Notes under the pieces: model-generated
What the model was told of the DNA's origin: nothing
Databases searched by the model: none
What the model saw: only the letters and a program-made list of their open reading frames with translations
Source of the DNA: a virus
Taxonomy: Duplodnaviria > Heunggongvirae > Uroviricota > Caudoviricetes
IMG/VR virus record: IMGVR_UViG_2574180019_000006
Length of the DNA stretch: 64,000 nucleotides
Direction: 5' to 3' (one strand)
Program-made: the position numbers and the translations under genes
Part shown: positions 4,966-63,159 of the stretch, piece by piece
Position numbering within the stretch: the first letter of the stretch is position 1
How the letters are laid out: the number at the start of each line of letters is the position of its first letter

Positions 4966-4986
4966 GATAGGTAAGTGCTTATCTAT
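4966..4986. promoter_or_regulatory. Intergenic palindrome gataggtaagtgcttatctat
   Basis: Member of recurrent palindromic element family, directly after stop of preceding gene. Confidence 0.35.
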
Positions 4987-4992
4987 TAACAT

Positions 4993-5022
4993 GGGCCACT
5001 ATATTTAGTGGCCCTCTTTATT
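4993..5022 (+). terminator. Rho-independent terminator-like hairpin
   Basis: gggccactatatttagtggccc stem-loop followed by tctttattt. Confidence 0.5.
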
Positions 5023-5031
5023 TGGTGATAC

Positions 5032-7347
5032 ATGATAAGCATCGTAAAACGTAACGGCCAAACAGAGCCGTTATCCGAAGAAAAATACAACCGCGTCGTA
5101 ATGTATGGCGTAGAAGGCATTCGTGGTGTAAGCGCATCCGCTGTAGCAATGGGAGCTGCGGCCAGCATTTTTGATGGGATGACCACCAGCCAGTTGCATG
5201 AGGCTTTGGTTAAATCTGCCGCTGATTTGATCTCACCAGAAGCACCAAATTACTCACAGGTGGCTGCCCGCCTGAACATTTTTAAAATCCGCAAAGATGC
5301 CTTCGGTCGTTACGACTATCCGAACTTCTACCAACACATTGTCAAGAACGTTAACAAGGGCGTTTATGACAAGGATTTGCTGACACATTATTCGTTTGAA
5401 GAGATCGAAGAACTCGGCAATTACATTAAGCCTAAACGTGACGATCTTTTTGGCTATGCAGCTACGGTGCAGTTGCAAAGCAAATACCTCGTTCAAAACC
5501 GTGTTACTGGTGAGATTCATGAGGGGCCGCAACATATCTATATGCTGGTAGGCATGTGTCTGTTCCAGAATTGGGAAGACGACTGCGCTGGCAAAACACG
5601 TATGGAGATGGTCAAAGGTTTCTATGACGTTACAAGTACGTTCAAACTGTCTCTGCCCACACCAATCATGGCCGGCGTCCGTACTCCTACCCGTCAGTTC
5701 TCCAGTTGTGTGCTGATTGAGTCTGGCGATAGTCTGAAAGGGATTAGTGCAGCTTCAGCCGCAATTATCGACTACGTTTCACGTCGTGCTGGAATTGGTA
5801 TTGGTTTTGGCCGTATCCGTGCGCTGGGCAGCGAGATCCGCAATGGTGAAGCCACCCATACCGGAGTTATTCCATTCCTGAAGCATTTCCAGACGGCTGT
5901 TAAATCTTGTTCGCAAGGTGGTGTTCGTGGTGGCGCAGCAACAGCGTTTTACCCGATCTGGCATCTTGAAGTTGAAAGTCTGCTGGTGGTGAAAAATAAC
6001 CGTGGTATTGATGAAAACCGCGTTCGCCATCTTGATTACGGCGTCATGAGTAACCGTCTAATGTACCGTCGACTCGTCAGAAGCGAGAACATCACTCTGT
6101 TCAGCCCGCATGATGTGCCTGATATGTACGAAGCCTTCTTCACAGACCAGGAGCTGTTTGAAAAGCTGTACCATAAATACGAAGCCGATGATTCAATTCG
6201 CAAGAAGTCAGTACCTGCCATTGAGCTGTTCTCATCTCTGATGCAGGAACGAGCGTCCACGGGCCGAATTTATATTGCGAACGTCGATCATATTAATGAG
6301 CATGGCGCTTTCATTCCTGCTCTTGCACCTGTCCGCCAGTCAAACCTGTGTATGGAGATCACCCTACCCACCCGTCCACTGGCATTTACCGACGACCCGA
6401 ACGGTGAGATCGCGCTATGCACTTTATCCGCTTTTAACCTCGGAGCCATCCGTTCACTGGAGTCTCTTAAAGAGGTGGCGTTCTATGCCGTTGCTGCACT
6501 GGATTCGTTACTGGATTATCAAGACTATCCGATGGAGGCAGCCGAAGTGCCTGCCAAAGCTCGTCGTAGCTTGGGAATTGGTGTAACCAACTTTGCTTAT
6601 TACCTGGCAAAGAATGGCGTTCGTTATTCTGATACCGCTGGCAATAAACTGGTGCATGAAACGTTCGAAGCTATCCAGTATTACCTTCTTGATGCCAGCT
6701 GCCGACTTGCTGAAGCAAAAGGTGAGTGTGACTGGTTTGAGCAGACCAAATACGCAATTGGTCAGTTGCCGATCGACCATTACCGTTCTTCATTAGACGA
6801 AAGTGGCGAAACCAACTTTGAGTTAAAGATGCCGTGGGAAGAACTGCGTGAACGTATTGCAAAATACGGCCTTCGCAACTCCACACTGACGGCACAAATG
6901 CCATGCGAGACTTCCAGCCAGATCACTAATTCCACCAACGGCATCGAACCGCCTCGTGGCCCGGTGTCGGTGAAATCTTCTAAGGACGGCATCGTTAAGA
7001 TGGTCGTGCCTGAGTTTGAAAAACTGAAGGAACAGTATGAATACCTGTGGGATATGCCGGACAACCGCGGCTATCTGACAAAGGTGGCGATCATCCAGAA
7101 GTTCTTTGACCAGGCTATTTCAGCCAATACCAACTATGACCCTTCTCGCTTTGAAGGCGATAAAGTCCCAATGATGACGCTACTGTCAGATTTGCTTCTC
7201 GCCTACAAGATGGGAGTTAAAACGCTTTACTACCACAACACCAGAGATGGTGCAGGAAAGCGTGATGACGACGAACCGCAGAATCCACTGGCGCAAGCTG
7301 TAGCCGTCGAGCCAGAAGATGAGTGCGACGGAGCCTGCAAAATCTGA
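5032..7347 (+). CDS. nrdA: Ribonucleotide reductase class Ia large subunit
   Basis: 771 aa; N-terminal ATP-cone-like VKRNGQTEPLSEEKY; C-terminal tail ...EDECDGACKI matches NrdA redox-active C-terminus; followed by nrdB. Confidence 0.9.
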   Translation: MISIVKRNGQTEPLSEEKYNRVVMYGVEGIRGVSASAVAMGAAASIFDGMTTSQLHEALVKSAADLISPEAPNYSQVAARLNIFKIRKDAFGRYDYPNFYQHIVKNVNKGVYDKDLLTHYSFEEIEELGNYIKPKRDDLFGYAATVQLQSKYLVQNRVTGEIHEGPQHIYMLVGMCLFQNWEDDCAGKTRMEMVKGFYDVTSTFKLSLPTPIMAGVRTPTRQFSSCVLIESGDSLKGISAASAAIIDYVSRRAGIGIGFGRIRALGSEIRNGEATHTGVIPFLKHFQTAVKSCSQGGVRGGAATAFYPIWHLEVESLLVVKNNRGIDENRVRHLDYGVMSNRLMYRRLVRSENITLFSPHDVPDMYEAFFTDQELFEKLYHKYEADDSIRKKSVPAIELFSSLMQERASTGRIYIANVDHINEHGAFIPALAPVRQSNLCMEITLPTRPLAFTDDPNGEIALCTLSAFNLGAIRSLESLKEVAFYAVAALDSLLDYQDYPMEAAEVPAKARRSLGIGVTNFAYYLAKNGVRYSDTAGNKLVHETFEAIQYYLLDASCRLAEAKGECDWFEQTKYAIGQLPIDHYRSSLDESGETNFELKMPWEELRERIAKYGLRNSTLTAQMPCETSSQITNSTNGIEPPRGPVSVKSSKDGIVKMVVPEFEKLKEQYEYLWDMPDNRGYLTKVAIIQKFFDQAISANTNYDPSRFEGDKVPMMTLLSDLLLAYKMGVKTLYYHNTRDGAGKRDDDEPQNPLAQAVAVEPEDECDGACKI

Positions 7348-7366
7348 CATATGGTGGGGGATATCC

Positions 7367-8705: not shown

Positions 8706-8754
8706 GGGGATATCCCCACCTTCTCTTTGATTTGTAAGCCTTGTTTAAACACAT

Positions 8755-8775: not shown

Positions 8776-8802
8776 GCACCAAAAAAGAAAAAGGAAAAAC
8801 AC

Positions 8803-9945: not shown

Positions 9946-10022
9946 ACCGATACAAAGCATTATGTGGCCTGGCAACGCTGGGCCACAATGGATCACAAGA
10001 ATTAAGAAGGAGCAAAACTAGC

Positions 10023-10892
10023 ATGAACTTTACCAAACTGACTGACCACCTGAAACTTGCCACCGATCGACTCATTGGATTTAAGCCAGAACCATATGAG
10101 TTGCATGAAGGCCATGGTGTAGCCACTGAAAGTATTTACAAGATGGTCGATCAGTTTCATGAACTCTTCCAGCATCCGAGACGCGTTATGCCGACACCAG
10201 AGCTGCTTCGTCTCCGTGCAAGCCTGATTCATGAAGAAGCTGTAGTGGAAGGTATTCCAGCCGCAATGAATGGGGATATTGAGCAACTGCTGGATGCAAT
10301 GGCCGACTTTTTATACGTTGGTGTTGGTACGATGGTCGCCATCAAAGGTGGTATTTCTACCGGCATGACTTATTACACGCAGGAACAGAGCATTGATCGC
10401 TTTATGCAGACAATTTTTGTGCCTGGTAACACTGTTTTCGATGATATGGCAATGCCATTTCAGGAAGCTCGTGAGGCGTCATGTATGCTCGAAGAGCTGG
10501 CAGATAAACTTGAGAAGAAGACTGTTAAGGATTCTGAGCTGATTCAGGAACTGCGCCGTGTAATGAACAAAATCTATGTGGCGTGCATGATGACTTATCG
10601 ACTGGCTGATTTTCTCGGTATCAATGTCGTCGAGCTGGTTGGCGAAATTCATCGGTCCAACATGACAAAATTATGGCCTGCAGATGCCGAAGAGCGTCGC
10701 CATGCTGTGGCCAACTGCAAATACGACTCTTCTGACCTGGGATTTCGCCATGCTGATGGCACCGATAAGATGATCGGTTTTCGAATTTCCGATGGAAAGA
10801 TTCTGAAGTCTCCAACCTATAGTGATGTCGATTTATCCTCCTTTGTTGAGCAAGCTAAAGCCTCAGCAATGTACGGAATGATCAAAAAATAA
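10023..10892 (+). CDS. putative all-alpha NTP pyrophosphohydrolase (MazG/dimeric-dUTPase-like)
   Basis: Segment IHEEAVVEGIPAAMNGDIEQLLDAMADFLYV fits MazG-type E-E-x2-E ... E-x2-D-x2-D-F-L pattern; nucleotide-metabolism neighbourhood. Confidence 0.4.
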   Translation: MNFTKLTDHLKLATDRLIGFKPEPYELHEGHGVATESIYKMVDQFHELFQHPRRVMPTPELLRLRASLIHEEAVVEGIPAAMNGDIEQLLDAMADFLYVGVGTMVAIKGGISTGMTYYTQEQSIDRFMQTIFVPGNTVFDDMAMPFQEAREASCMLEELADKLEKKTVKDSELIQELRRVMNKIYVACMMTYRLADFLGINVVELVGEIHRSNMTKLWPADAEERRHAVANCKYDSSDLGFRHADGTDKMIGFRISDGKILKSPTYSDVDLSSFVEQAKASAMYGMIKK

Positions 10893-10960
10893 TTGTAGGT
10901 AGTTATCTATCTGTGTATATTGCGCTGGCGCGTTAAATTTCTGAAACAACTATTCGTTTT

Positions 10961-10988: not shown

Positions 10989-11036
10989 CTGTCTGGTCTT
11001 GTTCTCTCAATAAATGTAAACTCACGCAATGAATAA

Positions 11037-12167
11037 GTGGTTACTTATCTTTGTGAGGTTTTTGTGTCACTCCTTTTGAATCGTGAGCATACGAACGGTC
11101 AGGTAACAAACGCATCGTATGCAAAAGTTATTGAGACGGTGCTTAAAAGCGGCGTGCAGGCTGATGATCGCACAGGCACTGGTACTTTAAGCACCTGTTA
11201 CGTTCCCTCTTACTACATGCTTACTGGTGGGACTGTGCCGCTTATTTCTGGAAAGGCGGTAAATCTTAAGCCACTGCTTGTCGAACTTGAGTGGTATCTG
11301 AAAGGCACGGGCAACATCCAATTTCTCAAGGATAACGGCGTTAAGATTTGGGATGCATGGGCCGATGAGAATGGCGATTTGGGGCCGGTTTACGGTAAGC
11401 AGTGGCGTCGATGGGAAGATACCCGCATCGTGAGCCATAGTGAATATCTGAGCAAGATCGCTACTTTCCGTGAACGCGGGTACAAAGTCGAGGGATACCT
11501 GGGTATCAGTGAAGATCGCGTAGTGCTGTCCCGTGAAATCGATCAGCTACAGCGTATTGTCGATACACTGCGCACGAACCCTACCGATCGTCGCATCATG
11601 CTTAACGCATGGAACGTAGGCGAGCTTGAGGATATGAAACTGCCACCTTGCCACTTTGTCTTCTCTTTGTGGAGTCGTGAACTGGATTTTGAAACCCGTT
11701 TAACGATGGCAACTGACATTGGTCTTCAACACAGTCGCCTCGGTTACGAGTCTATCTACACCAAGATGCTATACGATCTGGAGATGGACGGCAGTGTTAC
11801 TGAAACTGAACTGGATGAACTTGGAATCCCCAAACGCATCCTCAACTCCTGCCTCGTACAGCGTAGCGTAGACACTTTTGTTGGTATGCCATTCAATATT
11901 GCTGGCTATGGCATTCTCACTCATTTTCTCGCGAAGATTACGGGTCACATGGCCGGTGCATTTGTGCATTTTGGCTTTGACGTGCATTTGTACAACAACC
12001 ACATGGAAGGTGTGTGTGAGCTAATGCAACGACAGGCTCCAGAGCATTCAGATCCGGTCGTTATATTCCCTAATGAATGGTCTGAGCTGGATGATTTCAA
12101 ATGGGACGAGATTCTTATTCTTGGCTATGCCCCTCTACCGTGGATCAAGGTTCCAGTGGCGGTGTGA
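11037..12167 (+). CDS. thyA: Thymidylate synthase (ThyA-like) with two large insertions; true start probably GTG at 11064
   Basis: Conserved ThyA blocks DDRTGTGTLS, WADENGDLGPVYGKQWR, DRRIMLNAWNVGELEDMKLPPCHFVFSLW (catalytic Cys), VDTFVGMPFNIAGYGILTHF, HLYNNHME, GYAPLPWIKVPVAV; ~35-aa and ~60-aa inserts relative to E. coli ThyA. Confidence 0.8.
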   Translation: MVTYLCEVFVSLLLNREHTNGQVTNASYAKVIETVLKSGVQADDRTGTGTLSTCYVPSYYMLTGGTVPLISGKAVNLKPLLVELEWYLKGTGNIQFLKDNGVKIWDAWADENGDLGPVYGKQWRRWEDTRIVSHSEYLSKIATFRERGYKVEGYLGISEDRVVLSREIDQLQRIVDTLRTNPTDRRIMLNAWNVGELEDMKLPPCHFVFSLWSRELDFETRLTMATDIGLQHSRLGYESIYTKMLYDLEMDGSVTETELDELGIPKRILNSCLVQRSVDTFVGMPFNIAGYGILTHFLAKITGHMAGAFVHFGFDVHLYNNHMEGVCELMQRQAPEHSDPVVIFPNEWSELDDFKWDEILILGYAPLPWIKVPVAV

Positions 12168-15714: not shown

Positions 15715-15866
15715 CGTTCCCCTACTTAAAATAAAGCCCATAGAGAGCTTTATAGTACTGGGTAAGCCAATCACATACCCAGCACCACAAAAACGCGCCA
15801 GAGAGCTTCTCGTTTGCATTTCTGGCGCGTTTTATTTGATTGCCAGACATAAAATCAAATGCAAAA

Positions 15867-15886
15867 ATAGGTATATACTTACCTAT
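15867..15886. promoter_or_regulatory. Intergenic palindrome ataggtatatacttacctat
   Basis: Near-perfect palindrome of recurrent family, 10 nt upstream of MTase start. Confidence 0.35.
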
Positions 15887-16491: not shown

Positions 16492-16520
16492 TTTGTTCTG
16501 GCGTCTGTAATTAGCCTGCT

Positions 16521-16565
16521 TCTGTATATATAAATAACTACATATTAATTATTAATATACGGAAG
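16521..16565. repeat. AT-rich palindromic element, copy 1 of 2 (ctgtatatataaata...ttaatatacggaag)
   Basis: ~55-bp element with conserved flanks duplicated at 47571-47625. Confidence 0.5.
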
Positions 16566-16676
16566 AAGGCTGTTTTGTATCAGAGACTCCAGACCTGAAC
16601 ATCACTACAGAATCCACTAGAGCCCCTTCCCAGACGCTTTAAAATCGATTTTATAAACCACTTTAAGGAAACCAAC

Positions 16677-16907
16677 ATGTCATACCCGACTAATGTCGTT
16701 GCGCTCGTAGAGAGCGATTTTCTGGCCCAGGCTCGTGAAATGATGAAAGATCGTGAGCAGGCTTTCAACTTGTACGAATGGGCAATTAAGTGCTTGCATC
16801 TTGGCGAGCATCGCGAACTTGTTGAACAGCTTTTAGGTGAGTTGATCAATGAGGTGTTTGCCTTGAATGTTCAACTACATGGTAGAGAAAATAATCAATC
16901 ACAATGA
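16677..16907 (+). CDS. hypothetical small protein (76 aa)
   Basis: ORF with RBS aaggaa 6 nt upstream of ATG. Confidence 0.4.
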   Translation: MSYPTNVVALVESDFLAQAREMMKDREQAFNLYEWAIKCLHLGEHRELVEQLLGELINEVFALNVQLHGRENNQSQ

Positions 16908-17487
16908 TAGATAAGTACAAACTATTCATAAAGTGAATTGTAAGTGCTAAGATCTGATAGTTTCCAGTCGTAGACTGGAGACTCGACCTGATGGGTGGGG
17001 GTAAGCGTCACTGGCGTCAGGTTTAAAAAAGCTCACTACCAGCGTAGAACTGGTGCCGTTTAGGTGTCGGGGAAGGGGGAACCAAAGTGAGCAGAGACAA
17101 GGGTCACTTTATGATTGTCGAGTCTGGGGTGTTTCGAGAGGTTGAATCCAGTACTCCCCTTCATAAAGTGTGGGAAGATCTCGGTTCTGGGGTGCTGTCA
17201 TCCATAACTTCCCAAGTCTAAGCTGGCAGTAGACTTAGACCATAACTTTTCAGGTTATGAAACGACCAGGTTGGTGAGAGATTTATACTCACCTCCCTGG
17301 GAGAGTATTACCTGAAAAGACAACCTCTCACTTCGTTCGAGGTGAACTTCACTCACTTCGTTCGTTCAGTTCAGGTTTATAAAAACCTGTTCTGGGAAGT
17401 AATTTGTTTATTTTAATAATTATTAACACGCACGCGTGTGCGCACGCGCGAGGAAAAATCGGCGCGGCGCTTGATTCAGGAGTTTAT

Positions 17488-18078
17488 ATGACGACGAAGA
17501 CACCAGCCCGATCGCAAGCAAAAACTCGCAAAAAAGCCAAAAACAAAAATTCTCCCCGCACCAATCCCACAACGCCTGTCGTAGAGTTCAATCCCCAGCT
17601 TAAAACCGTGAAAATCTTCAGTGATGGCTCTTGCCTTAAAAATCCGGGTGGCCCGGGCGGTTACGGTATCGTTCTTCAGTATCGTGGAGAGGAACGCGAG
17701 TTCTCAGATGGTTTTCATAGCACCACCAATAACCGCATGGAGATGATGGGGGCACTTATCGGGCTGGAGCGTTTGAAATATCCATGCAACGTTATTTTGC
17801 ACTCTGATAGCCAGTATCTGAAAAACGGCATGACACAGTGGATGAAATGGTGGAAACGCAATGGATGGATGACTTCTGACAAAAAACCGGTAAAGAATGT
17901 TGATCTGTGGAAGCGTCTGGATGAGGCCGCAAGTCGACATAATGTTCGCTGGAAGTGGGTTAAAGGTCACGCCGGGCATCGTGAAAATGAAATATGTGAT
18001 CGACTCGCGAAGATCGCAGCTTTTTCAGCAGCAGATATGCCTCACAAGAAAGATATTGGTTTTGTTTATAACAAATAG
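17488..18078 (+). CDS. rnhA: Ribonuclease HI with N-terminal basic extension
   Basis: Core [84 protein letters not shown] colinear with E. coli RnhA; ~40-aa Lys/Arg/Thr-rich leader; RBS aggag before ATG 17488. Confidence 0.85.
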
Positions 18079-18226
18079 TAAGTAAGTGTTTACCTATCAT
18101 TTTAAATCATGTATCTTATCGGCGTCAGGATGACAATGTGTCGGTAAGACACAGTTCCAGGATGGAACGAGAAAGGCGGCTGGCAATCGCCAGCCGCAAC
18201 TCTTTCTGACACTGGATGGAGTCCAC

Positions 18227-20443: not shown

Positions 20444-22129
20444 ATGAATACAGCCCTTTCCATCATCGACGATGCCAGCTCAAACACGGCTATCGACTAT
20501 CGTCAGGAAATGAATGTCATCCACGAAATCGTGGCCGAGTGCGAGAAAGAGATCGCCTTCATGTATCAGGTACACGACTTCGTTTATGGCGACGAACGCC
20601 ACAACATGATTAATCGCCTGCTGAGACTAAACCATCGACCAGATGAAGATCGCTCGCGTTTAAATCGAGGTTGGTTGGATAAAGTCGATCTGGAATGGGT
20701 GAAACAGAATATTTGGGCCGAGTACTGGAGGAAGGTCACGGACATGACTAACGTTTTGCTGATCATGCCAGCTTCCCGTCGAGATGAGTGGCGCGAGCAG
20801 TTTATAGAGGGCAAACAGGAAGTCATCAAAACTGACAGAACCGGCTACCAGATGAAGGTTAAAGAGTTCGTTGGTGTACCGGAGTTCAAAGCAGAAACGG
20901 TCATACCCACGATGCTTAATTTGCTGAATGACAGGCACAAATATCTCTCTGAGCGCGTGTATGGCTTGTTTAAGGCGCTGAGTCCTGCGCACAAGACAAA
21001 TAAGACAAACGGTTTCAGCGAGCGGCTGATAATCGCTGACTGCATTTCTGATTTCTGGCGGGACAGCGTTAGCGTGAACTATCGCAAAGAGGACTACATC
21101 GACGATCTGCGTGTCTTGCTTCATTTCTTCGCGCACAAAGAATTTATTACCATCAACCGCACTGCTGAGGTGCTATCAGCTGCGTATCGGGCAAACGACT
21201 GCCAGACCGGTGACTGGATGAACGTCGATGGAAATCTGATGCGCGTGAAGATGTTCAAGAACGGCAACGTTCACTTTGAAATACATCCTGACGTGGCCTG
21301 GAAGTTGAATGAGGTGCTGGCTTACAGTATGCCTGCTGCAATCCCCGCGCCATGTCGCACCGCGCCAAAAACACGGGCACCAAAGCAGTTCGGGTTAATC
21401 CAGAAGACGATCTCCGTGCCGGTTCGCACTGCGCTTCGTGACGGGCGATTGAGCAAAGACAAAGGCGTATGGTACTTCTCTGATTCAGCTCTCCAGAAGT
21501 CGCAGGTGGAAGAGCTTGAGCGCACACTGAGCTTCATTGGCGGCGTGCAGGAGAAAAAACACTGGCAGTTCCCGTATGACATCGTCCATACGCTAAATAC
21601 GATTGTGGCTACCGGATTAATACCGGATACAAAATCACACCAGTTCTACCCTACCCCACGCTTGATTGCTGAGTACGTTGCCAGAGCCACTGAATTGAAG
21701 CCTGGTGAGAAGCTGCTGGAGCCTCAAGCCGGACGTGGGGATCTTCTGGCCTATATTAACGCCGATCTGGAAGATGTTACCTGCATAGAAATCGCACCTC
21801 TCTTCGCTGATATCCTGCGTGGAAAAGGGTATACGAACACGATTTGCTGCGACTTCATAAAGTGGTCTGAGGACAACGCAGGTTATCAGTTCGACAAAAT
21901 CGTTATGAACCCGCCGTACTCGCTTGGTCGTCATAGAGAGCACACTCTGGCTGCGCTTGGGCATCTGAAAGTCGGCGGGCGTCTTGTAGCAGTATTGCCG
22001 GGCACTGCGCCAATACTGGACTGGATGACGATGGATAATTACGTTTATGCCAGAGGGAAGTCGTTTACCAACGAGTTTGAAGACACAGGGATCACAGTCA
22101 GCGTATACGTTTTCAAACGCGTTAAATGA
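20444..22129 (+). CDS. two-domain protein with C-terminal N6-adenine DNA methyltransferase domain
   Basis: 561 aa; C-terminal AdoMet motif I LEPQAGRGDL and catalytic motif IV VMNPPYS; N-terminal ~380 aa of unknown function. Confidence 0.6.
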   Translation: MNTALSIIDDASSNTAIDYRQEMNVIHEIVAECEKEIAFMYQVHDFVYGDERHNMINRLLRLNHRPDEDRSRLNRGWLDKVDLEWVKQNIWAEYWRKVTDMTNVLLIMPASRRDEWREQFIEGKQEVIKTDRTGYQMKVKEFVGVPEFKAETVIPTMLNLLNDRHKYLSERVYGLFKALSPAHKTNKTNGFSERLIIADCISDFWRDSVSVNYRKEDYIDDLRVLLHFFAHKEFITINRTAEVLSAAYRANDCQTGDWMNVDGNLMRVKMFKNGNVHFEIHPDVAWKLNEVLAYSMPAAIPAPCRTAPKTRAPKQFGLIQKTISVPVRTALRDGRLSKDKGVWYFSDSALQKSQVEELERTLSFIGGVQEKKHWQFPYDIVHTLNTIVATGLIPDTKSHQFYPTPRLIAEYVARATELKPGEKLLEPQAGRGDLLAYINADLEDVTCIEIAPLFADILRGKGYTNTICCDFIKWSEDNAGYQFDKIVMNPPYSLGRHREHTLAALGHLKVGGRLVAVLPGTAPILDWMTMDNYVYARGKSFTNEFEDTGITVSVYVFKRVK

Positions 22130-22149
22130 TAGGTAAATACTTACCTAAT
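22128..22149. promoter_or_regulatory. Intergenic palindrome gataggtaaatacttacctaat
   Basis: Recurrent palindromic element family directly after MTase stop. Confidence 0.35.
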
Positions 22150-35943: not shown

Positions 35944-35973
35944 AGCCCCGCCATCCTTACGGGGCTTTTTTGT
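35944..35973 (+). terminator. Rho-independent terminator
   Basis: agccccgccatccttacggggct hairpin followed by tttttgt. Confidence 0.6.
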
Positions 35974-35976
35974 ATT

Positions 35977-35992
35977 GTAAGTATATACTTAC
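35977..35992. promoter_or_regulatory. Perfect palindrome gtaagtatatacttac
   Basis: Recurrent palindromic element family; identical 16-mer at 56623-56638. Confidence 0.4.
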
Positions 35993-38360: not shown

Positions 38361-38362
38361 TT

Positions 38363-38593: not shown

Positions 38594-38614
38594 GATTAAG
38601 CTCCTTAAAAAAAA

Positions 38615-38818: not shown

Positions 38819-38866
38819 CTTTAAAGCTCCTTTAAAGCGCCCATTGTGGGCGCTTGATTCCATTAA

Positions 38867-39526: not shown

Positions 39527-39812
39527 CCTTACGAAAAATTAAAATGAATTTATTTTTTACTGTCGTTAGCTAGCTCGCTTTCGACGAGTTCAATTATCGA
39601 TACGTGAAAAAAGATTGCAAGTATTTTTTTTAAATTTTCTGCAGGGATGAAAGTCCTAGAAATAAAAGCGAGATCGTCGAAGGTGTTCCCTAAATAAATA
39701 ATCAATTCGGGCCTTTAACCTTATATATTTATACGGAGTGGCATCGAAAGAGTTTTAAATGAATGGCATGTAAAATAATAACCGGACTTAGCCGGTTATT
39801 ACCCTTATAGAT

Positions 39813-40337
39813 TTAAAATGGAAGGATTCGTTCAACCCAATCGAAGAAAACAAGTATTTTTCTGCCGTCTTCTAACTTAAGAGTGACCTGGCAAGCATCA
39901 ACGCCTCTTGACACCCCTTCTATTTCACGACCGTCTGTCATGTAGACCCTTATAGATTGGTCGTTTTGATAAGCCTTGCGACATATCGCAAAAAAGTCAC
40001 GGCGTGATGGCTGATTGTCAACATAGTCTGGATGTATTGTTAGCCTACCTTTGAACTCGCGAGCAATGTCATCGATTACACCTGATTCAATTGTGCTAAT
40101 GCGCTCAAGTGGGAGTCTTATACGATTTTCTTTATCATATGGAATCGGGCATAAATCTAGCTTATTGCGTGAAGGCATTGTCCCCTGAACGTACATGCAA
40201 AACACCTGACCGTCTTCAAGCGTGACTCTTACAGGAATGTTGTTCTTCCGCCAGAACATAAGTATGTTCTCAGCATGTTCGTAGTCTCGCGGCCAGACTT
40301 CAGCCGGTATGCCGTAGGTGATGTCCAATGTTCTCAT
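39813..40337 (-). CDS. hypothetical protein (174 aa), AT-rich cassette
   Basis: ATG overlaps stop of upstream gene (ATGA); RBS aagag; internal duplicated beta-rich segments (VRVTLEDGQVF / VTLKLEDGRKI). Confidence 0.5.
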   Translation of the reverse strand: MRTLDITYGIPAEVWPRDYEHAENILMFWRKNNIPVRVTLEDGQVFCMYVQGTMPSRNKLDLCPIPYDKENRIRLPLERISTIESGVIDDIAREFKGRLTIHPDYVDNQPSRRDFFAICRKAYQNDQSIRVYMTDGREIEGVSRGVDACQVTLKLEDGRKILVFFDWVERILPF

Positions 40338-40948
40338 TCTGATACTCTTAGAGGTGTTTTCAGCAATCCAAATTTAAATTCTTTATTACCAACGACCAAG
40401 AAGGGGACTTCAACATAGATTTTTTTATCGACGGATTTAGAGTTCGCTGTTTTCTTGATGTCGCGAACGATACGTTTTGTTGTGTTTTCATCAATAAACA
40501 ATACCTTCCCACTGGTATTCCCTTCAGTCTTAGCATAAGTGACAATAGGTTCTTCATTGCCAACTCTGATGTTCACTTGGCAACCCGTTGTAGCCATTTC
40601 ATCACAATAGAGTGTACCGTCTTGAATTTCTAAAACAATTCCAGATGGCTTCATGGCCTCGTTAGAGCTTACATTAGCGTTTTCTGGTACTGCGGTCCCG
40701 TTAATTTGCAACCGTAATCTTTCTGTTCCTGCATGAAGTATTGTTTCTTCTGCGTTATCTGAGAATCTATACCAGACTGGTTGAATCAGACCTCGTGATT
40801 TGTATTTTAGTACGTCTTCAGAAGTATACATGCTGTACGTTTTTTGCATGTCAGAGACGAAATCTGATAATGCGTTGGCGGAAAACGCCGGGAGGCATAT
40901 ACAAGCAAGGAGTAACGAAAGTTTCATTTTCATATCATGATAATCCAA
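40334..40948 (-). CDS. putative secreted or lipoprotein (~200 aa), AT-rich cassette
   Basis: N-terminal MKMKLSLLLACICLPAFSA signal-like segment (possible lipobox LLAC or SPase I site AFSA); ORF track begins at TTG. Confidence 0.5.
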   Translation of the reverse strand: MDYHDMKMKLSLLLACICLPAFSANALSDFVSDMQKTYSMYTSEDVLKYKSRGLIQPVWYRFSDNAEETILHAGTERLRLQINGTAVPENANVSSNEAMKPSGIVLEIQDGTLYCDEMATTGCQVNIRVGNEEPIVTYAKTEGNTSGKVLFIDENTTKRIVRDIKKTANSKSVDKKIYVEVPFLVVGNKEFKFGLLKTPLRVSE

Positions 40949-41437
40949 TTATTTAACATCACACTTTCTAAGTTTTTCTATTTGTTCTAATTTTTCATGA
41001 TCATCATTTAGATTTCCTTTGACTATCTCCGTTTCAAGTTTGCTGATTAGCATGTTAAGTGCGTTGTAGTTATTGCATTTTACTTTGTAGGCGTAGTATG
41101 ACCTTGTCCCTGGTTTTTGTACACCCATATCATTAAAGTTAGAGCTTAAAGTATAACCTTCAAGTTCAACCCCTTTTATTGTTGGAAGAATTATATTTAA
41201 TGGTTCTAATTTAAATGGGTAGATATAAATATGTGATATGAAGTACTCTTCTGAAGAGATTTTCTTCATGTCTTTTGTGATTGAAACTGAATATTTACGG
41301 TCCCGAGCGATATAAAATTTTGTACATTTGTACGGCTCTAAGTTGAATAGATAATATCTGTCTTTAAAAAGAACATCTTTTCCATGTGATATTTTATGTC
41401 GTAAAGAGTTAATTATTTTGTTTATAGAAATACTCAT
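40949..41437 (-). CDS. hypothetical protein (162 aa), AT-rich cassette
   Basis: Tightly packed with neighbours; Lys/Asn/Ile-rich composition. Confidence 0.5.
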   Translation of the reverse strand: MSISINKIINSLRHKISHGKDVLFKDRYYLFNLEPYKCTKFYIARDRKYSVSITKDMKKISSEEYFISHIYIYPFKLEPLNIILPTIKGVELEGYTLSSNFNDMGVQKPGTRSYYAYKVKCNNYNALNMLISKLETEIVKGNLNDDHEKLEQIEKLRKCDVK

Positions 41438-41582
41438 CTACAGTATCCGACCTTAGTTATCAATTGAAAAGCCTACAAATATCGTTCAGCCAATCAAGAA
41501 ATTTTTTCAGCCGGAGGTATGTACTTCAAAAAATGTGATGAATGTCACATGCAGGTGCTCTCATACACCTGCATGTAGACTA

Positions 41583-42182
41583 TTAATCATTCAATAATCT
41601 ATATTTTCTTTTGATTAAATCTTCACCTTTTTTGGTGAACACAAAACCAAATTGCGATTTTTTGTTCAGCCTAAGGACTCTGTTATCCAACGCATCGGTT
41701 GATGGAATCAATGTTTGATCATCTATCCAATTAAGTAGCGTAAGAAAGTTCAGCAGCCTCAACGTTGTTGTGCGAAGCTCTTTCGATATATTTTCAATGC
41801 TGGCAATTCGTCTTTCTTTTTTCTCAGGTGGTACAGATAATTGTTCTTGAGGTTTCGTGGGTAGATAATCAATTTCGTTTGCTGAATCGAATGATATGTG
41901 TGGCGTAATTTTGCTAAAAAAGCCTTTCGCTGACTCACTTGATAATAAACCAGACCTATTCATATCGTTTGTTATTCTGTACAGGAGTGGACTGTGTTTC
42001 ATTTCAGGATAACGTTGATAAAAGTTAAGCAATTCAAAAGCAGCATTAGCACCAACAAGAAAATCAGAAGGATCGCTGACTTTCCAGAAAGAATGATTTT
42101 TCTTAGCGCCAGTGGTGTCAACAAATGATAATTCTTTTAACCAACTCATGATGTGCTCCTTTCTAACAAGTGAGCACATCAT
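41583..42182 (-). CDS. hypothetical protein (~188 aa from ATG 42149), AT-rich cassette
   Basis: Strong RBS aaggag 6 nt before ATG 42149. Confidence 0.5.
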   Translation of the reverse strand: MMCSLVRKEHIMSWLKELSFVDTTGAKKNHSFWKVSDPSDFLVGANAAFELLNFYQRYPEMKHSPLLYRITNDMNRSGLLSSESAKGFFSKITPHISFDSANEIDYLPTKPQEQLSVPPEKKERRIASIENISKELRTTTLRLLNFLTLLNWIDDQTLIPSTDALDNRVLRLNKKSQFGFVFTKKGEDLIKRKYRLLND

Positions 42183-42214
42183 AGAATTAGTAGATAGGGG
42201 GTAAATATGAAATG

Positions 42215-44055: not shown

Positions 44056-44100
44056 AAACCTCTTTCCTTAGTGCCTTTTGTATGTTATTTGGCTATTATA

Positions 44101-44121
44101 ATAAGTAAGTGATTACTTAAT
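44101..44121. promoter_or_regulatory. Palindrome ataagtaagtgattacttaat in divergent promoter region
   Basis: Recurrent palindromic element family between divergently transcribed helicase and ParB-like genes. Confidence 0.35.
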
Positions 44122-44818
44122 GGATTGTAGCAATAAAATGGATGTAAAAATCACGATTTTGCAGGTTGATGTTGCCAACCTTCGCCCGAATACCTGGAAC
44201 ACCAATTCGGTTGGTGCGCAGAATTTTGAAAAACTGAAAGGTTCTATCGAAAAATTGGGCTTTTTTAAGCCAATTTTGGCTCGTGAACTTGAAGATGGAT
44301 TTTTTGAAATCCTCGGCGGCGAACATCGCTGGCGTGCCGCTATTGAGCAAGGAATTTCAACGGTTCCGGTGCTTTCTGTGGGCAAAATTAGCGATGTCGT
44401 AGCTAAACAGATGTCACTGGTGGACAACGAGCGATACGGTGAAGACGACCAAATCGCATTGCAACGCTTCATTGAAGAAATTCAGTCAGAGCTTGACTAT
44501 CAACTGTCTGAAATCGCCCCGTATGACGACGAAATCTCGATGGTTTTAGCAAAAGAGGCGGCAATCGACCTTGAAGCACTGGAGGCGTTGTCTCGTGGTA
44601 GTGATGAGCCTGTCGATACCGACAAACGAGAGAAAACCGAACGTGTGGGTGCGGAACATCAGACCATGCGCTTCAAAGTAACTTTCGATGCGTCAGATCG
44701 TGTTGCAGAAACCATAAAAAACATCATCAAAGAGCAGGCTATTAACACCGGTAATGAAATGGAGAACGCTGGTGAGGCTCTGGTGTGGCTGGTTGACTAC
44801 TACAAGGAGCGTATGTAA
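44120..44818 (+). CDS. ParB-like N-terminal nuclease-domain protein 1
   Basis: ParBc motif region ILGGEHRWRAAIEQG; 232 aa. Confidence 0.6.
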   Translation: MDCSNKMDVKITILQVDVANLRPNTWNTNSVGAQNFEKLKGSIEKLGFFKPILARELEDGFFEILGGEHRWRAAIEQGISTVPVLSVGKISDVVAKQMSLVDNERYGEDDQIALQRFIEEIQSELDYQLSEIAPYDDEISMVLAKEAAIDLEALEALSRGSDEPVDTDKREKTERVGAEHQTMRFKVTFDASDRVAETIKNIIKEQAINTGNEMENAGEALVWLVDYYKERM

Positions 44819-45486
44819 TGACCAAAAAGTTTGAAATCGTATATCGCGACCCGGCAGATCTTATTCCCTATGAGATGAATGCCAAAAAGCATGATGAACA
44901 GCAGATCCGAGATCTAGCCGCAGCCATTAAAAAGCGCGGATTTGACCAGCCAATTACGGTCGATAAGAACGACGTAATTATTACTGGCCACGGCCGCCGT
45001 GAGGCTGCAATTTTTGCTGGACTTGAGCGCGTACCGGTTATTGTTCGCGATGATCTCAGTGATGACGAGGTTCGTGCGAAGCGCCTTGAAGATAACCGAC
45101 TTGCCAGCATTGATTACGATGCAATTAAGCTACAGAAAGAGCTTGAGTCGCTTGTTCTGGACGATATCGAGGTTTTCGGCTTTGAAGAGCGTGAGTTGAA
45201 TGTTCTCGTTGGCAGTATGACAGAAGAAATGGACACCGACTCGCTAGTTATCGATCTTGGCGAAGAAACTAAACGACAGAAGGATGAACACACCGAGATC
45301 AGTCGTGAAGTTGCAGCGGAAGAAGTACGTGTTGTCGACGTATTGGGCTTTAAAACGCTCCCTGCTGGCTCTGCCATTGTTGTTGGTGATTTGCTTGCCC
45401 ACATGGAAGAAATGACGGGAGAAAGCGGGGTAGACGCATTTGTGGCATATGCGGAGAAGATCTCTTCCGGGGAGATGGCTGCATGA
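44818..45486 (+). CDS. ParB-like N-terminal nuclease-domain protein 2
   Basis: ITGHGRREAAIFAGLERVPVIV ParBc motif; RBS aaggagcg. Confidence 0.65.
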   Translation: MTKKFEIVYRDPADLIPYEMNAKKHDEQQIRDLAAAIKKRGFDQPITVDKNDVIITGHGRREAAIFAGLERVPVIVRDDLSDDEVRAKRLEDNRLASIDYDAIKLQKELESLVLDDIEVFGFEERELNVLVGSMTEEMDTDSLVIDLGEETKRQKDEHTEISREVAAEEVRVVDVLGFKTLPAGSAIVVGDLLAHMEEMTGESGVDAFVAYAEKISSGEMAA

Positions 45487-47540: not shown

Positions 47541-47570
47541 TCGGTCTGGGAGCTTATTTAAAGACCTGTT

Positions 47571-47625
47571 TCTGTATATATAAATAATAAGTAACTTATT
47601 AAATATATACGGAAGCAGGCTTCGT
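47571..47625. repeat. AT-rich palindromic element, copy 2 of 2
   Basis: ttctgtatatataaataa...ttattaaatatatacggaagcaggct; conserved flanks shared with 16521-16565. Confidence 0.5.
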
Positions 47626-48368: not shown

Positions 48369-49624
48369 TGGCAATCCCGTCCTCGCTCAGTCTTGTGCAA
48401 CTGCATTCTGGACAGATGAAAGTCTTCCAGTCTCCGCATCGATTTAAAGTTGTTTGTGCTGGTCGACGCTGGGGAAAATCCCGGTTGTCGATCTCCACTA
48501 TTATTCGTGCGGCGGCAAAGGAAAAAAAGCAAAGGGTCTGGTATGTCGCTCCTACTTACCAGATGGCTCGCCAGATTTTGTGGGACGATCTACAGGAAGT
48601 TCTGCCTCGTAAGTGGGTTAGGAAAAAGAACGACACCACGATGACAATCGTGTTGAAGAACGGTTCGGAGATCGCCCTCAAAGGTGCTGATAAGCCTGAC
48701 ACTCTGCGCGGCGTAGCGTTGCATTTTGTAGTGCTTGATGAATTTCAGGATATGAAGGCTGACACCTGGTACAAGGTGTTACGACCTACTCTTTCATCGA
48801 CACGCGGCGGTGCACTGATCATTGGTACGCCAAAAGGCTTCTCGGAATTTCACAAACTGTGGACTATAGGCCAGAACGTAGAGCTGCAAAGAAAGGGACA
48901 GTGGAAGAGCTGGCAGTTTGTAACTGCCGATTCTCCGTTTGTGCCTACGGCGGAAATTGAAGCTGCTAAGAACGATATGGACCCCAAATCGTTCGCTCAG
49001 GAGTACCTGGCCAGCTTTGAGAACATGTCCGGGCGCGTTTACTACCCGTTCGATCGTAACGTGCATGTAAAACCGCTTCAGTTCAACCCTCGGTTGCCTA
49101 TATGGGTAGGGCAGGACTTCAACATTGACCCGATGTCTTCAGTAATTTTGCAACCTCAGCCAAATGGTGAGCTATGGGCAATTGATGAATTGGTGCTCTT
49201 TTCCTCTAACACGGCAGAAGTTTGTGATGAGCTTGAGAGACGCTTCTGGCGCTGGAAATCACAGGTAACGGTATTTCCAGATCCGGCAGGTGCTTATCGC
49301 CAACATGCTCGTGGGGAGTCTGACGTAGACATATTCAAAGAGAAGGGATTCTTACGTGTCGATTATTCGAAAAAGCACCCGCCAATTGCGGATCGTGTTA
49401 ATGCTGTTAACCGAATGCTGATGTCCGCATCTGGAGATATCCGGCTGTATATCGATCCGAAGTGCAAGCATTTGATTGATTCACTGGAAAAAGTCATCTA
49501 CAAGCCTGGAACACGAGATATGGATAAGACAGGTGGCATTGAGCATAGTGCAGACGCATTGGGCTATCCAGTACATCGTAGGTATCCAGTCAAAAACCGT
49601 GTTATTCTTGGTGGTTCTCGATAG
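48368..49624 (+). CDS. Terminase large subunit
   Basis: Walker A-like VVCAGRRWGKS, Walker B-like HFVVLDEFQD, C-terminal nuclease-like Asp-rich region; followed by portal. Confidence 0.8.
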   Translation: MAIPSSLSLVQLHSGQMKVFQSPHRFKVVCAGRRWGKSRLSISTIIRAAAKEKKQRVWYVAPTYQMARQILWDDLQEVLPRKWVRKKNDTTMTIVLKNGSEIALKGADKPDTLRGVALHFVVLDEFQDMKADTWYKVLRPTLSSTRGGALIIGTPKGFSEFHKLWTIGQNVELQRKGQWKSWQFVTADSPFVPTAEIEAAKNDMDPKSFAQEYLASFENMSGRVYYPFDRNVHVKPLQFNPRLPIWVGQDFNIDPMSSVILQPQPNGELWAIDELVLFSSNTAEVCDELERRFWRWKSQVTVFPDPAGAYRQHARGESDVDIFKEKGFLRVDYSKKHPPIADRVNAVNRMLMSASGDIRLYIDPKCKHLIDSLEKVIYKPGTRDMDKTGGIEHSADALGYPVHRRYPVKNRVILGGSR

Positions 49625-49639
49625 GTAAGTAGTTATCTA
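49621..49639. promoter_or_regulatory. Palindrome ataggtaagtagttatcta between terminase and portal
   Basis: Recurrent palindromic element family. Confidence 0.35.
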
Positions 49640-49650
49640 AGGTTATTCAA

Positions 49651-51225
49651 ATGGAATTGAACGACAAACAAATTAAGGATCTGGTGGCGCGACGCCACCC
49701 GGAATACGAAAAGAAAAAAGAACATTGGGACTTCCTCGCCAGCACTTACGCTGGCGGGCGTGGTTGGTTTACAGACAATATCTTTCGTTACTTTAAAGAG
49801 GGAGATCAGGAGTTTAAGGAGCGAGTTGAACGTGCTTATCGCTTCAACCACACTCGTGAGGTGGTAAACCTCATCAACAAATATCTCTTTAAAGAAGACA
49901 TTCATAGAAATATCGAAGAGGCACCAGAGCAGATCCGCAATTTCTGGAAACGTGCGACTCGCCAGAATGCCTCTATTGACTCATTTATGGCCGCTATTGA
50001 TTTGCAGTCGTCTATTTACGGTCGCATATGGGTTGTTGTCGATAGCACGATGAGTGGTGATGTTGAGTCAGTAGCTGACGAGAAAAAGAAAGATGCTCGC
50101 GCCTACGCCTACTGGATTTCACCTCAGCAAATGCTGGATGTGGCATGGGACGACGACGGGAATATGTTGTGGGCGTTAATTGTGGAAGTCGCTCGTGATG
50201 ACGCAGATCCTTTTACTTCTACAGGTCAGGAATACCAACGTTATCGTCTGTGGGCACAAAACGAGTGGTATCTGTTCCGTGAGGAAGTGAAGAAGGGCGC
50301 TGGTGGAGCAGGTCGCCGTCAGGCAAAAGTTATTTTAGAGGATAGCGGTGAGCATAATCTCGGCGTAGTTCCTGTGTTTCCTGTTGATTGTATTGGAGAA
50401 AGTGAATCACCGTATTTCAGCCCATCGTTGATCGATGATATCGCTTATCTTGATCGTGCGGTTGCAAACTATCTGTCAAACCTTGATGCCATTATTCAGG
50501 ATCAGACATTTAGCCAGTTGGCTATACCGGTACAGTCGCTTTTACCTGGTGATGAAAACCACACTAAAGTGCTTGAAATGGGCACAAAGCGAGTCTTCAC
50601 CTACGATTCTGAAGGTGGAAACCAGCCGTTTTATCTGTCACCAGACCCGAAACAAGCTCAGATGATCATCACTACGATTAAGACGGTGATTAACGAAATC
50701 TACCATTCAGTTGGTGTAGCTGGTGAGCGAACGAAGCAGGACAACGCACAGGGAATCGATAATTCATCTGGTGCCGCAAAAATGTATGACTTCCAGCGTG
50801 TAAATAGCTTGCTTGTCACAAAAGCAGAGCGTCTGGAAAGGGCTGAACGCCAAATCATGCTACTGGTTGCGAAATGGATGGGGGCAGATCTGGACGAAGA
50901 CCACTCTTTAATTGCGTATCCAGAAAGTTTCGATATTCGTGGCCTTACTGATGAATTTTCTGTTGCCGAGAAACTGTCATTACTTCAGGCACCGGACTCT
51001 GTACGTCGTCACCAGATGGAAATGCTTATTGAGAAGATTTTCCCGAACATTACTGAGGCGATGAAAAAGGAATTTGATAAAGATCTCTTGAATTTTCCTC
51101 CAAAAAATGATCTAAATACCCTTGAAAATAAGTCAGTACTTACTTATGATCGTGGTACAGCCCAAGAAAGCGGGCAAGATCAACCCCGAGGGAATGGGGA
51201 CTCATCTACTCAAGAGAACGAGTGA
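49651..51225 (+). CDS. putative portal protein
   Basis: 524-aa ORF directly downstream of terminase large subunit, upstream of scaffold and capsid genes; assignment by synteny and size. Confidence 0.6.
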   Translation: MELNDKQIKDLVARRHPEYEKKKEHWDFLASTYAGGRGWFTDNIFRYFKEGDQEFKERVERAYRFNHTREVVNLINKYLFKEDIHRNIEEAPEQIRNFWKRATRQNASIDSFMAAIDLQSSIYGRIWVVVDSTMSGDVESVADEKKKDARAYAYWISPQQMLDVAWDDDGNMLWALIVEVARDDADPFTSTGQEYQRYRLWAQNEWYLFREEVKKGAGGAGRRQAKVILEDSGEHNLGVVPVFPVDCIGESESPYFSPSLIDDIAYLDRAVANYLSNLDAIIQDQTFSQLAIPVQSLLPGDENHTKVLEMGTKRVFTYDSEGGNQPFYLSPDPKQAQMIITTIKTVINEIYHSVGVAGERTKQDNAQGIDNSSGAAKMYDFQRVNSLLVTKAERLERAERQIMLLVAKWMGADLDEDHSLIAYPESFDIRGLTDEFSVAEKLSLLQAPDSVRRHQMEMLIEKIFPNITEAMKKEFDKDLLNFPPKNDLNTLENKSVLTYDRGTAQESGQDQPRGNGDSSTQENE

Positions 51226-53035: not shown

Positions 53036-53069
53036 TCAGTGTTGTAGATAAGTAATTATCTATGTTTAA

Positions 53070-53097
53070 GGGTGGGCTATACGCCCACCCTTTTTGT
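53070..53097 (+). terminator. Rho-independent terminator after capsid gene
   Basis: gggtgggctatacgcccaccc hairpin followed by tttttgt. Confidence 0.6.
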
Positions 53098-56230: not shown

Positions 56231-56614
56231 GTGTTTATCGAAGCGTTTGCAAGTTTGATGCAGAAGGCAAAGATTGGCACGGTCGGGACTGACATTTTCT
56301 GTCACTACTTGCCTGCCAATGTGAAATCTGGCGTCCTGCTTATTAACCCAAATACCGGTATCAGCATCGATCATGAGCTACAGGGCTTTTATCACGAATC
56401 ATTCACAATCATTGTGCGTGGTTCGTCAATTACTACGACGGTTGAGAAAGCCAATAAAATCATTGAGATGTTTCCAGTAGAGGAAACGGAATCTGGTGGT
56501 GTTTATTTTCGACTTGTACGACCGATGGCGATGCCAATCATTTATCCCAAAAATGATGGGGCATTAATAGAAGCAGGCATTCCTGTTGAATTTGCTGGCT
56601 ATTTATTGAATTAA
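56231..56614 (+). CDS. hypothetical tail-terminator-region protein (~128 aa, GTG start)
   Basis: GTG 56231 preceded by gagagg; ORF track extension 56108 overlaps previous gene. Confidence 0.35.
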   Translation: MFIEAFASLMQKAKIGTVGTDIFCHYLPANVKSGVLLINPNTGISIDHELQGFYHESFTIIVRGSSITTTVEKANKIIEMFPVEETESGGVYFRLVRPMAMPIIYPKNDGALIEAGIPVEFAGYLLN

Positions 56615-56621
56615 CTCAATT

Positions 56622-56639
56622 GGTAAGTATATACTTACT
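56622..56639. promoter_or_regulatory. Palindrome ggtaagtatatacttact upstream of major tail gene
   Basis: Core identical to 35977-35992. Confidence 0.4.
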
Positions 56640-62749: not shown

Positions 62750-62791
62750 CTATCGACTGCCCCGACCGGGGCGGTCTCACAAGGATGTGAG

Positions 62792-63127
62792 ATGGAAAGA
62801 CAAACGTTTAATTGGTATCCAGATTACGAATCTGAAAAGAGCGTAAAACCGAATGTAACGGTACTTAATTTTGGTGATGACTACGAGCAGCGACAGGCTC
62901 AAGGTCTTAATCGTATTAAAGAAGAATGGTCGTTAACCTTTACCAGATCATACAACGAAATTAATGCAATCGATGACTTCCTGACTGAGCGAGCAGGCGT
63001 TGAGTCGTTCTATTGGGTTAATCCAAGAGGAAAACGGATTGTAGTTGTATGTGACAGTCATACGGTCAAGCGATATCAGGGGTACTGTGTCTTAACTGCT
63101 ACATTCAGACAAGTATTTGAGGCTTAA
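62792..63127 (+). CDS. Minor tail protein, lambda gpM-like
   Basis: 111 aa; FNWYPDYE...LNFGDDYEQRQAQGLN...SLTF...ESFYW...RYQGY resembles lambda gpM as recalled; directly after tape measure. Confidence 0.7.
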   Translation: MERQTFNWYPDYESEKSVKPNVTVLNFGDDYEQRQAQGLNRIKEEWSLTFTRSYNEINAIDDFLTERAGVESFYWVNPRGKRIVVVCDSHTVKRYQGYCVLTATFRQVFEA

Positions 63128-63133
63128 GCATCT

Positions 63134-63159
63134 GGATAAGTAAGTACTAATTTACTATC
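63134..63159. promoter_or_regulatory. Palindrome-family element ggataagtaagtactaatttact
   Basis: Recurrent palindromic element family. Confidence 0.3.

Follow-up and report, generated by a model that had tools for sequence, protein, structure and literature searches.

Why does a phage genome carry one near-palindromic sequence in so many of the gaps between its genes? The question is raised by a 64,000-nucleotide (nt) stretch of tailed-phage DNA (IMG/VR record IMGVR_UViG_2574180019_000006; "the window" means this whole stretch). A sequence-only reading had listed twelve copies there and taken them for a promoter or operator family recognised by an element-encoded regulator or sigma-like factor. 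The window is, judging from its megablast matches and its synteny with the annotation of phage Cyrano, part of an Escherichia coli phage-plasmid of the SSU5/pHCM2 type, of about 108 kb. A 20-32 kb query matched Escherichia phages CMS-2020a, Cyrano (pLF82) and PhiR41_1 at 96-98% identity and, more distantly, Salmonella phage SSU5 and Klebsiella phage-plasmids. The palindromes are probably the operator family of a single dimeric repressor that binds double-stranded DNA and is encoded by the phage-plasmid itself.

The true consensus is a 20-base-pair (bp) palindrome, ATAGGTAAGT followed directly by ACTTACCTAT, in which two half-sites ATARGTAAGT abut as an inverted pair, with centres about one helical turn apart. 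The longer consensus first proposed, TAGGTAAGTA(n)TACTTACCTA, fits only two 16-mer variants. The sequence TAGGTAAGTA, allowing at most one mismatch, has 13 matches against 2.0 expected, and none of 100 shuffles reached 13. With a symmetrised 20-bp position weight matrix (PWM), 13 sites score at least 16 bits, the limit by which a site in the window is called strong, where a first-order Markov null predicts 0.02, so that the element does recur well above chance, as had been claimed. Information content drops to background beyond the 20 bp, and no promoter elements flank the motif there at one fixed offset. Eleven of the twelve copies first listed are genuine (Table 1) and the one at 10894 is weak, at 9.4-9.8 bits; the list was also incomplete, strong sites at 11029, upstream of thyX, and 51128, at the 3' end of the portal gene, having been overlooked. 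It was right that the perfect 16-mer GTAAGTATATACTTAC occurs exactly at both 35977 and 56623.

The window is about 90% coding, yet 12 of the 13 strong sites are intergenic (P ~2e-11). Eight begin 0-10 nt from the upstream stop codon, and the next start codon lies 10 to 129 nt away. Every site is in a region transcribed on the + strand or else at the one divergent junction (44.1 kb), which disposes of the idea that copies occur in both arms; the PWM scan found no strong site from 22.2 to 35.9 kb, nor any in the - strand block at 38.3-44.0 kb. A search of related phage genomes, which the sequence-only reading had recommended, revealed the motif at orthologous intergenic positions in Cyrano, SSU5 and Klebsiella pJN2-26, the last with two perfect-consensus copies. 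The same holds for contigs of Buttiauxella, Kluyvera and Yersinia pestis. In Cyrano, SSU5 and the Klebsiella relative, each genome has some 20-30 copies. Over the ~91-100 kb scanned, Cyrano and SSU5 each hold 17-21 sites of at least 15 bits, and the bases that differ between orthologous sites are mostly the central four to six. The motif family is thus real, conserved and functionally constrained. No description of it was found in the searchable literature, nor any paper giving its sequence, key subscription papers being beyond reach. The host motifs of OxyR, TyrR, MqsA and LexA, compared informally, presumably do not correspond to it, their spacing not matching that of the palindrome.

The binder is most likely a small XRE-type helix-turn-helix (HTH) protein of 126-128 residues, encoded beside the integrase gene and annotated as a putative repressor (CYRAN_45 in Cyrano), which is the best of the three candidates compared. 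Its gene is carried by Cyrano, by E. coli relatives and by Klebsiella elements, and the protein matches PHROG 8, "transcriptional regulator", with E = 1e-11. A domain search of the 128-residue protein found a single putative HTH and no S24 peptidase domain; its induction must therefore differ from the LexA/cI type. Upstream of the gene is a promoter-like sequence, TTTACA-16-TAATAT, followed at once by CGGTAAGCACTTACC, the -10 hexamer starting three positions before the motif (the -3 geometry); GGTAAGTNCTTACC lies 31-45 nt upstream of the homologue's start codon. The core GGTAAGYACTTACC, directly after TAATAT upstream of CYRAN_45 homologues, is exact in pJN2-26 and in 46 of the 55 IMG/VR loci that carry a homologue. 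Four of the nine non-exact loci were aligned, the other five being left out, and these four are one base off. Across these loci, the repressors are 56% to 100% identical. The position of the core directly after the repressor's own -10 implies negative autoregulation. A wider IMG/VR scan with the 15-base core was uninformative, its matches, at least 100, being SSU5-like contigs and probable chance matches.

Published expression data agree with this assignment. In lysogens of strain LF82, CYRAN_45 is transcribed 10-fold above the prophage background (PMC9928086 Table 1). When the same table is set against the map of sites in Cyrano, none of the 13 other expressed genes lies directly downstream of a strong site, and by this comparison about 20 operons linked to sites are silent. 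SSU5, a phage isolated as a plaque former, retains the sites although the integrase-repressor module is absent; the integrase and XRE-repressor module, which in Cyrano and in E. coli and Klebsiella relatives stands between the tRNA genes and cobT, is missing from its sequence (NC_018843) at ~42.5-42.8 kb. This fits the view of SSU5 as a lytic derivative without a repressor. A distant relative, Providencia plasmid CP096299.1 (1-34877), also favours the assignment: its homologue of the repressor is 39% identical, and it has a related but shifted dispersed palindrome, RTAnGTAT-N4-ATACSTAY, in 14 copies against about 1 expected, an excess that is overstated because the PWM was refined and scored on the same sequence; several copies lie directly past -10-like hexamers.

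Could another protein of the element fill this function? Two ParB_N proteins (44120-44818 and 44818-45486) are encoded directly downstream of the 44101 site, and one of them might bind the palindrome as a ParB/KorB-like global regulator. ParB-family proteins do bind palindromes as dimers, and KorB acts at both promoter-proximal and distal sites. We nevertheless consider this unlikely: a domain search of both proteins found no HTH beyond ParB_N, and the site at the promoter of the XRE repressor is more simply explained by autoregulation. Moreover, the genes of Cyrano that lysogens express include neither of the two parB-like genes (PMC9928086 Table 1), which makes their products poor candidates for silencing lytic genes.

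The relation of the sites to promoters points to a repressor. Among 47 strong sites from four genomes, 24 overlap a sigma-70-like consensus match on the + strand, against 4.0 expected at random intergenic positions, about a sixfold excess; these are consensus matches, counted by the criteria of the window scan plus a looser rule for extended -10 elements. In the window such matches are depleted overall relative to dinucleotide shuffles (15 against 28.5 at 1-20 kb; 9 against 21.3 at 44-64 kb). In the window, + strand promoter matches coincide with the motif at 4964-4992, 15840-15868, 51122-51150, 56606-56635 and 63133-63161. Measured from motif position 1, the -10 hexamer begins at -3, +12, +18, +21 or +28 to +30, and each of these classes is kept among orthologues. 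At 15867, for instance, TTGCCA-17-(TG)AAAAAT ends at motif position 2, so the site covers +1; its TGnAAAAAT is kept in SSU5 and pJN2-26, both of which have a perfect-consensus site. At 22129, an extended -10, TGTAAGAAT, begins 7 nt downstream of the site (offset class +28, kept in SSU5), which places the site over the -35 region. The site at 51128 is the spacer of TTGAAA (51122)-17-TATGAT (51150), a 10/12 match, 99 nt before the next gene and the best promoter match of the late region; its 20-mer is identical in SSU5 and pJN2-26, the pJN2-26 -10 being TATCAT. In each of these placements (+1, spacer or -35 region) a bound protein would exclude RNA polymerase. A placement that varies between sites and is kept between orthologues is the behaviour of an operator, not of a promoter for a special sigma factor.

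A switch for early and late genes, either an element-encoded activator or a sigma-like factor, would account for sites ahead of early-type and late-type operons alike, several of which contain or abut -10-like hexamers. Activators and sigma factors, however, require a fixed geometry, and here the motif is symmetric with independent half-sites while its distance to the -10 ranges from -3 to +30. Activation could not work from a site over +1 or within the spacer, and a copy lies in the promoter of the lysogeny repressor gene itself. The promoters look like ordinary host sigma-70 promoters, in five offset classes, and no sigma factor or RNA polymerase gene is annotated in Cyrano, SSU5 or pJN2-26. 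The activator is in our opinion quite improbable. Of the regulatory role first suggested for the element, an operator family, an element-encoded regulator and a marker of transcription units fit the evidence, and the sigma-like-factor promoter is not supported. The operator half of that suggestion fits the independent half-sites, the sixfold promoter overlap and the variant at the putative repressor's promoter.

Since the sites sit between stop codons and ribosome-binding sites, and since one gene of the window belongs to the FljA family, whose members are repressors that bind mRNA, it is a key question whether the palindrome is read as double-stranded DNA or as a transcribed hairpin. Two covariation tests bear on it. 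For an 8-bp stem in 37 sites, 85.5% of cells are paired, compared with 85.0% in column-preserving shuffles, 176 of 500 shuffles doing at least as well. The second test used 55 unique sites from five genomes, found with a sequence-only model and read on the transcribed strand. There, pair 4:17 is G:C in 15 sites, G:T in 9, A:C in 12 and A:T in 11 (Fisher P = 0.56), Watson-Crick cells number 285 against a permutation mean of 284, and the mismatch cells include 23 G:U and 21 A:C. Some A:C mismatches are retained in orthologues (18078 and SSU5 79904; Cyrano 31296 and 59399). Neither the 37-site nor the 55-site test detected compensatory or G:U-maintained pairing of the arms. The paired cells are as expected from shuffles and A:C is about as frequent as G:U; therefore, the two halves drift independently towards the same half-site. 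Such drift is the mark of double-stranded DNA read by a symmetric dimer, and on the two tests a hairpin in RNA or in single-stranded DNA is rejected.

The RNA-level alternative would make the palindrome a transcribed 8-bp hairpin that acts as a translational operator, a stabiliser or a processing site, perhaps bound by the FljA-family protein. In its favour, the sites come after a stop codon and ahead of the following ribosome-binding site, some of them only 10-17 nt from the start codon. The FljA-like protein (39813-40337, - strand) is a full-length member of Pfam Flag1_repress (E = 3e-80), is kept in all SSU5-like elements, those of Klebsiella included, and is predicted to have a tandem Sm/Hfq-like fold. 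In addition to the lack of covariation and the orthologue-stable A:C mismatches, both inverted halves would be unnecessary for a protein that binds single-stranded RNA, and the FljA-like gene has no site in its own upstream region. We regard this alternative as very improbable. The FljA-like protein was also rejected as a binder of the DNA sites: it is encoded by a core gene of the group, but its modelled fold, of the tandem Sm/Hfq-like type, has no HTH. A single-sequence model was discarded, with a predicted local distance difference test score (pLDDT) of 37, and the fold comes from a later model. A search of genome contigs for the FljA-like protein gave 4 close loci, and the leader of E. coli K-12 fliC bears only a loose resemblance to the motif.

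A non-regulatory dispersed repeat (a recombination or mosaic boundary, a nuclease or methylase target, a selfish mini-element), to which the position of the sites at gene-module boundaries and the GTAC at their centre might point, deserves hardly any credence in view of the 20-bp length, the strict intergenic placement, the orthologous conservation with independent drift of the halves, the tight, conserved registration with promoter hexamers and the lack of flanking repeat structure.

The repressor would then work as follows. Its sites are spread over the lytic part of the genome, which comprises genes of nucleotide metabolism and replication, the parB-like/terminase operon, and the genes for head, tail and lysis. 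Bound at the sites that overlap promoters, it would exclude RNA polymerase and hold the lytic units silent for as long as the element lives as a replicating plasmid. Where there is no room for a promoter, as in the 26-nt gap between terL and portal, the sites are probably roadblocks against read-through, and the palindrome core at its own promoter would let the repressor regulate itself negatively. The roadblock function and the identity of the repressor are both matters that we infer.

Several points weigh against this interpretation. Occupancy of the sites, the identity of the binder and repression by binding are all inferred. The candidate gene lies outside the window, a homologue search of which found no homologue, and the protein's matches to Pfam HTH_19, HTH_37 and HTH_3 are all below the curated cut-offs. 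The E. coli and Klebsiella repressors are 56% identical, yet share the same motif, and the site at the repressor's own promoter departs from the consensus at its outer positions. The candidate repressor and the FljA-like protein (865 and 831 PLSDB plasmids, respectively) have the same phyletic distribution, so that presence or absence does not separate them. About half of the sites lack a recognisable promoter. The extra 4 bp in the conserved variants at 35973 and 56619 would not be tolerable for a rigid dimer. Finally, the null models of the PWM scans are Markov shuffles, and the Providencia PWM was scored on the sequence used to refine it.

How far does this resemble known systems? In phage P1, one repressor, C1, acts at many operators over about 100 kb, which overlap lytic-gene promoters at varying positions. 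P1 is likewise an enterobacterial plasmid prophage with dispersed operators (here 13 strong sites in 64 kb). The operators of P1, to which the C1 family binds, are asymmetric 17-mers, ATTGCTCTAATAAATTT; those described here are symmetric 20-mers of unrelated sequence with a small XRE-type HTH protein as the candidate binder. IncP plasmids have about 12 dispersed OB operators for KorB, and a repeated palindromic operator around a plasmid, for global and co-ordinate repression, is common to both cases. KorB, however, belongs to the ParB family, whereas here the ParB-like proteins are the less likely binders and the sequences are unrelated. The LexA box and the operators of lambdoid cI are similar in being ~20-bp palindromes with half-sites one turn apart, placed at -35, spacer or +1, with an autoregulatory copy; lambdoid operators are clustered at OL and OR, and those of the window are dispersed.

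In the cluster A mycobacteriophages (L5 gp71 type), sites for the repressor number more than 20, at promoters and in short intergenic spaces, and a stop of initiation and elongation has been proposed for them (PMC9283540). These stoperators are asymmetric 13-mers, oriented with transcription and bound by a two-domain monomer (PMC9283540). D29 is described as a deletion derivative of a temperate parent (PMC5712189). The likeness lies in the number of sites (more than 20), many of them in short intergenic spaces without promoters, such as the terL/portal gap at 49621 and the positions right behind stop codons, and in the existence of a lytic relative without repressor: D29 there and SSU5, with its sites kept, here. 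The sites described here differ in being palindromic, so that orientation cannot matter, the candidate is a 128-residue protein with a single HTH, and a block to elongation is a proposal. The system is in anatomy a classical dimeric HTH operator like the LexA box and in logic like P1 C1 and the stoperators. As the features that define the latter two, an asymmetric site and a specific protein family, are not found here, it can be said to work like them, not to be one of them.

A bolder version, which we put forward only tentatively and would not bet on, is a genome-wide, stoperator-like silencing grid, in which the symmetric sites and a small XRE dimer would stop elongating RNA polymerase, even where there is no promoter, at nearly every module boundary, the same code holding across the SSU5/pHCM2/pMT1/pKpn/pSLy3 group. 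This group amounts to ~850 sequenced plasmids, including Yersinia pestis plasmids of pMT1 size, and also counts carriers of resistance genes. If the grid is real, it would be precisely their position outside it that allows cargo genes to be expressed.

Phage-plasmids of the SSU5 type occur commonly in Escherichia, Klebsiella, Enterobacter, Salmonella and Yersinia. For this group, no regulator is named in a 2024 review of how phage-plasmids are regulated (PMC11652158), and we found no description of one in the searchable literature, key subscription papers again being beyond reach. The operator map predicts lytic transcription units and their promoters, should allow immunity groups to be predicted from the repressor/operator pair, offers a possible explanation for the expression of cargo genes in the plasmid state, and provides handles to induce, cure or engineer SSU5-like elements.

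Table 1. Copies of the palindrome in the window, with their surroundings and orthologues; the last column tells whether the sequence-only reading had listed the copy.
Coordinates	Strand	Copy	Bits	Location	Promoter-like elements	Relatives	Listed
283..302	.	ATAGGTATATACTTACTTAT	24.8	upstream of sbcD (415)	offset class +30	Cyrano 63199, SSU5 63080, pJN2-26 343; extended -10 (TGnCATAAT) 9 nt downstream	yes
4967..4986	.	ATAGGTAAGTGCTTATCTAT	26.6	8 nt past ruvC-like stop, upstream of nrdA	spacer of TTGATA (4964)-17-TAACAT (4992)	same layout in SSU5, pJN2-26	yes
10891..10910	.	weak copy shortened by 2 bp; doubtful	9-10	overlaps mazG-like stop		no Cyrano counterpart of at least 11 bits	yes
11029..11048	.	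ATGAATAAGTGGTTACTTAT	19.9	directly upstream of thyX ribosome-binding site		Cyrano 72595, SSU5 72511, pJN2-26 9789	no
15867..15886	.	ATAGGTATATACTTACCTAT	25.5	11 nt upstream of adenine methyltransferase start	see text	see text	yes
16907..16926	.	half-site only, ATAGATAAGT	11.7			SSU5: fuller palindrome ATCGGTAAGTACTTACCATT	no
18078..18097	.	GTAAGTAAGTGTTTACCTAT	23.7	starts on last stop-codon base (18078) of RNase H-like gene		SSU5, pJN2-26: 27.4 bits	yes
22129..22148	.	ATAGGTAAATACTTACCTAA	26.2	starts on last stop-codon base (22129) of DUF4942 gene	see text	see text	yes
22154	.	weak second copy	10.6				no
35973..35992	.	variant with perfect 16-mer GTAAGTATATACTTAC at 35977-35992		follows terminator	inside TTGTAA-17-TAGAAT		yes
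44101..44120	.	ATAAGTAAGTGATTACTTAA	22.4	82-bp divergent region, UvsW-like helicase (-)/parB-like gene (+)	TATAAT (44097-44102) abuts site, usable from either strand	Cyrano, SSU5, pJN2-26	yes
49621..49640	.	ATAGGTAAGTAGTTATCTAA	24.0	overlaps terL stop, 10 nt before portal start	none recognisable in the 26-nt gap	SSU5, pJN2-26: 26-29 bits	yes
51128..51147	.	ATAAGTCAGTACTTACTTAT, intragenic	25.2	portal gene 3' end	see text	see text	no
53044..53063	.	GTAGATAAGTAATTATCTAT	22.0	8 nt past major capsid gene stop		pJN2-26: perfect consensus	yes
56619..56638	.	variant ATTGGTAAGTATATACTTAC, 16-mer at 56623-56638	18.3	upstream of Ig-domain tail protein gene	within TTGAAT (56606)-18-TATACT (56635)	TTGAAT/C-18-TATACT kept in SSU5, pJN2-26	yes
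63136..63155	.	ATAAGTAAGTACTAATTTAC	20.1	8 nt past tail M gene stop	spacer of TGGATA (63133)-17-TATCAT (63161)	SSU5 likewise offset class +21	yes

In the variants at 35973 and 56619, an extra 4 bp separates the half-sites compared with the main class, and a TATACT -10 lies in the centre; the 56619 variant is kept in SSU5 and pJN2-26. At three places the operator or operator/promoter is immediately followed by a terminator-like hairpin (4964-5014, 63133-63187 and also 53044-53086), the hairpins occupying 4993-5014, directly after the site and promoter, 63165-63187 and 53070-53086. The predicted transcription start lies in the 5' arm of the hairpin; upstream transcripts would terminate there, and the hairpin could not form in transcripts that start at the regulated promoter.

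By synteny with Cyrano, the window opens with sbcCD, nrdAB, thyX, the adenine methyltransferase gene (dam-like) and Ea genes, followed by an accessory region with metRS. The - strand block at 38.3-44.05 kb contains the FljA-family gene and a UvsW-like helicase gene, and after it come the two parB-like genes and the terminase, portal, capsid and tail genes. Within this block the stretch 38000-42200 is low in G+C (37-39%), and two genes (40334-40948 and 40949-41437) occupy the place of a single + strand lipoprotein gene in Cyrano; this pair (40334-41437) is a variable accessory spot adjoining the FljA-like gene.

A second repeat family is present at 16515-16569 and 47565-47619. It consists of 15-bp inverted arms, CCTGCTTCYGTATAT, around a 25-nt AT-rich loop that contains a half-site-like sequence. 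The arms have 4 matches where 0.09 are expected, and the family is kept in Cyrano, SSU5 (three copies) and pJN2-26. It may be a terminator, or be related to packaging or replication. In the copy that precedes terS, the loop is the point at which the deposited linear SSU5 record is opened; the Cyrano record has its end next to its own copy.

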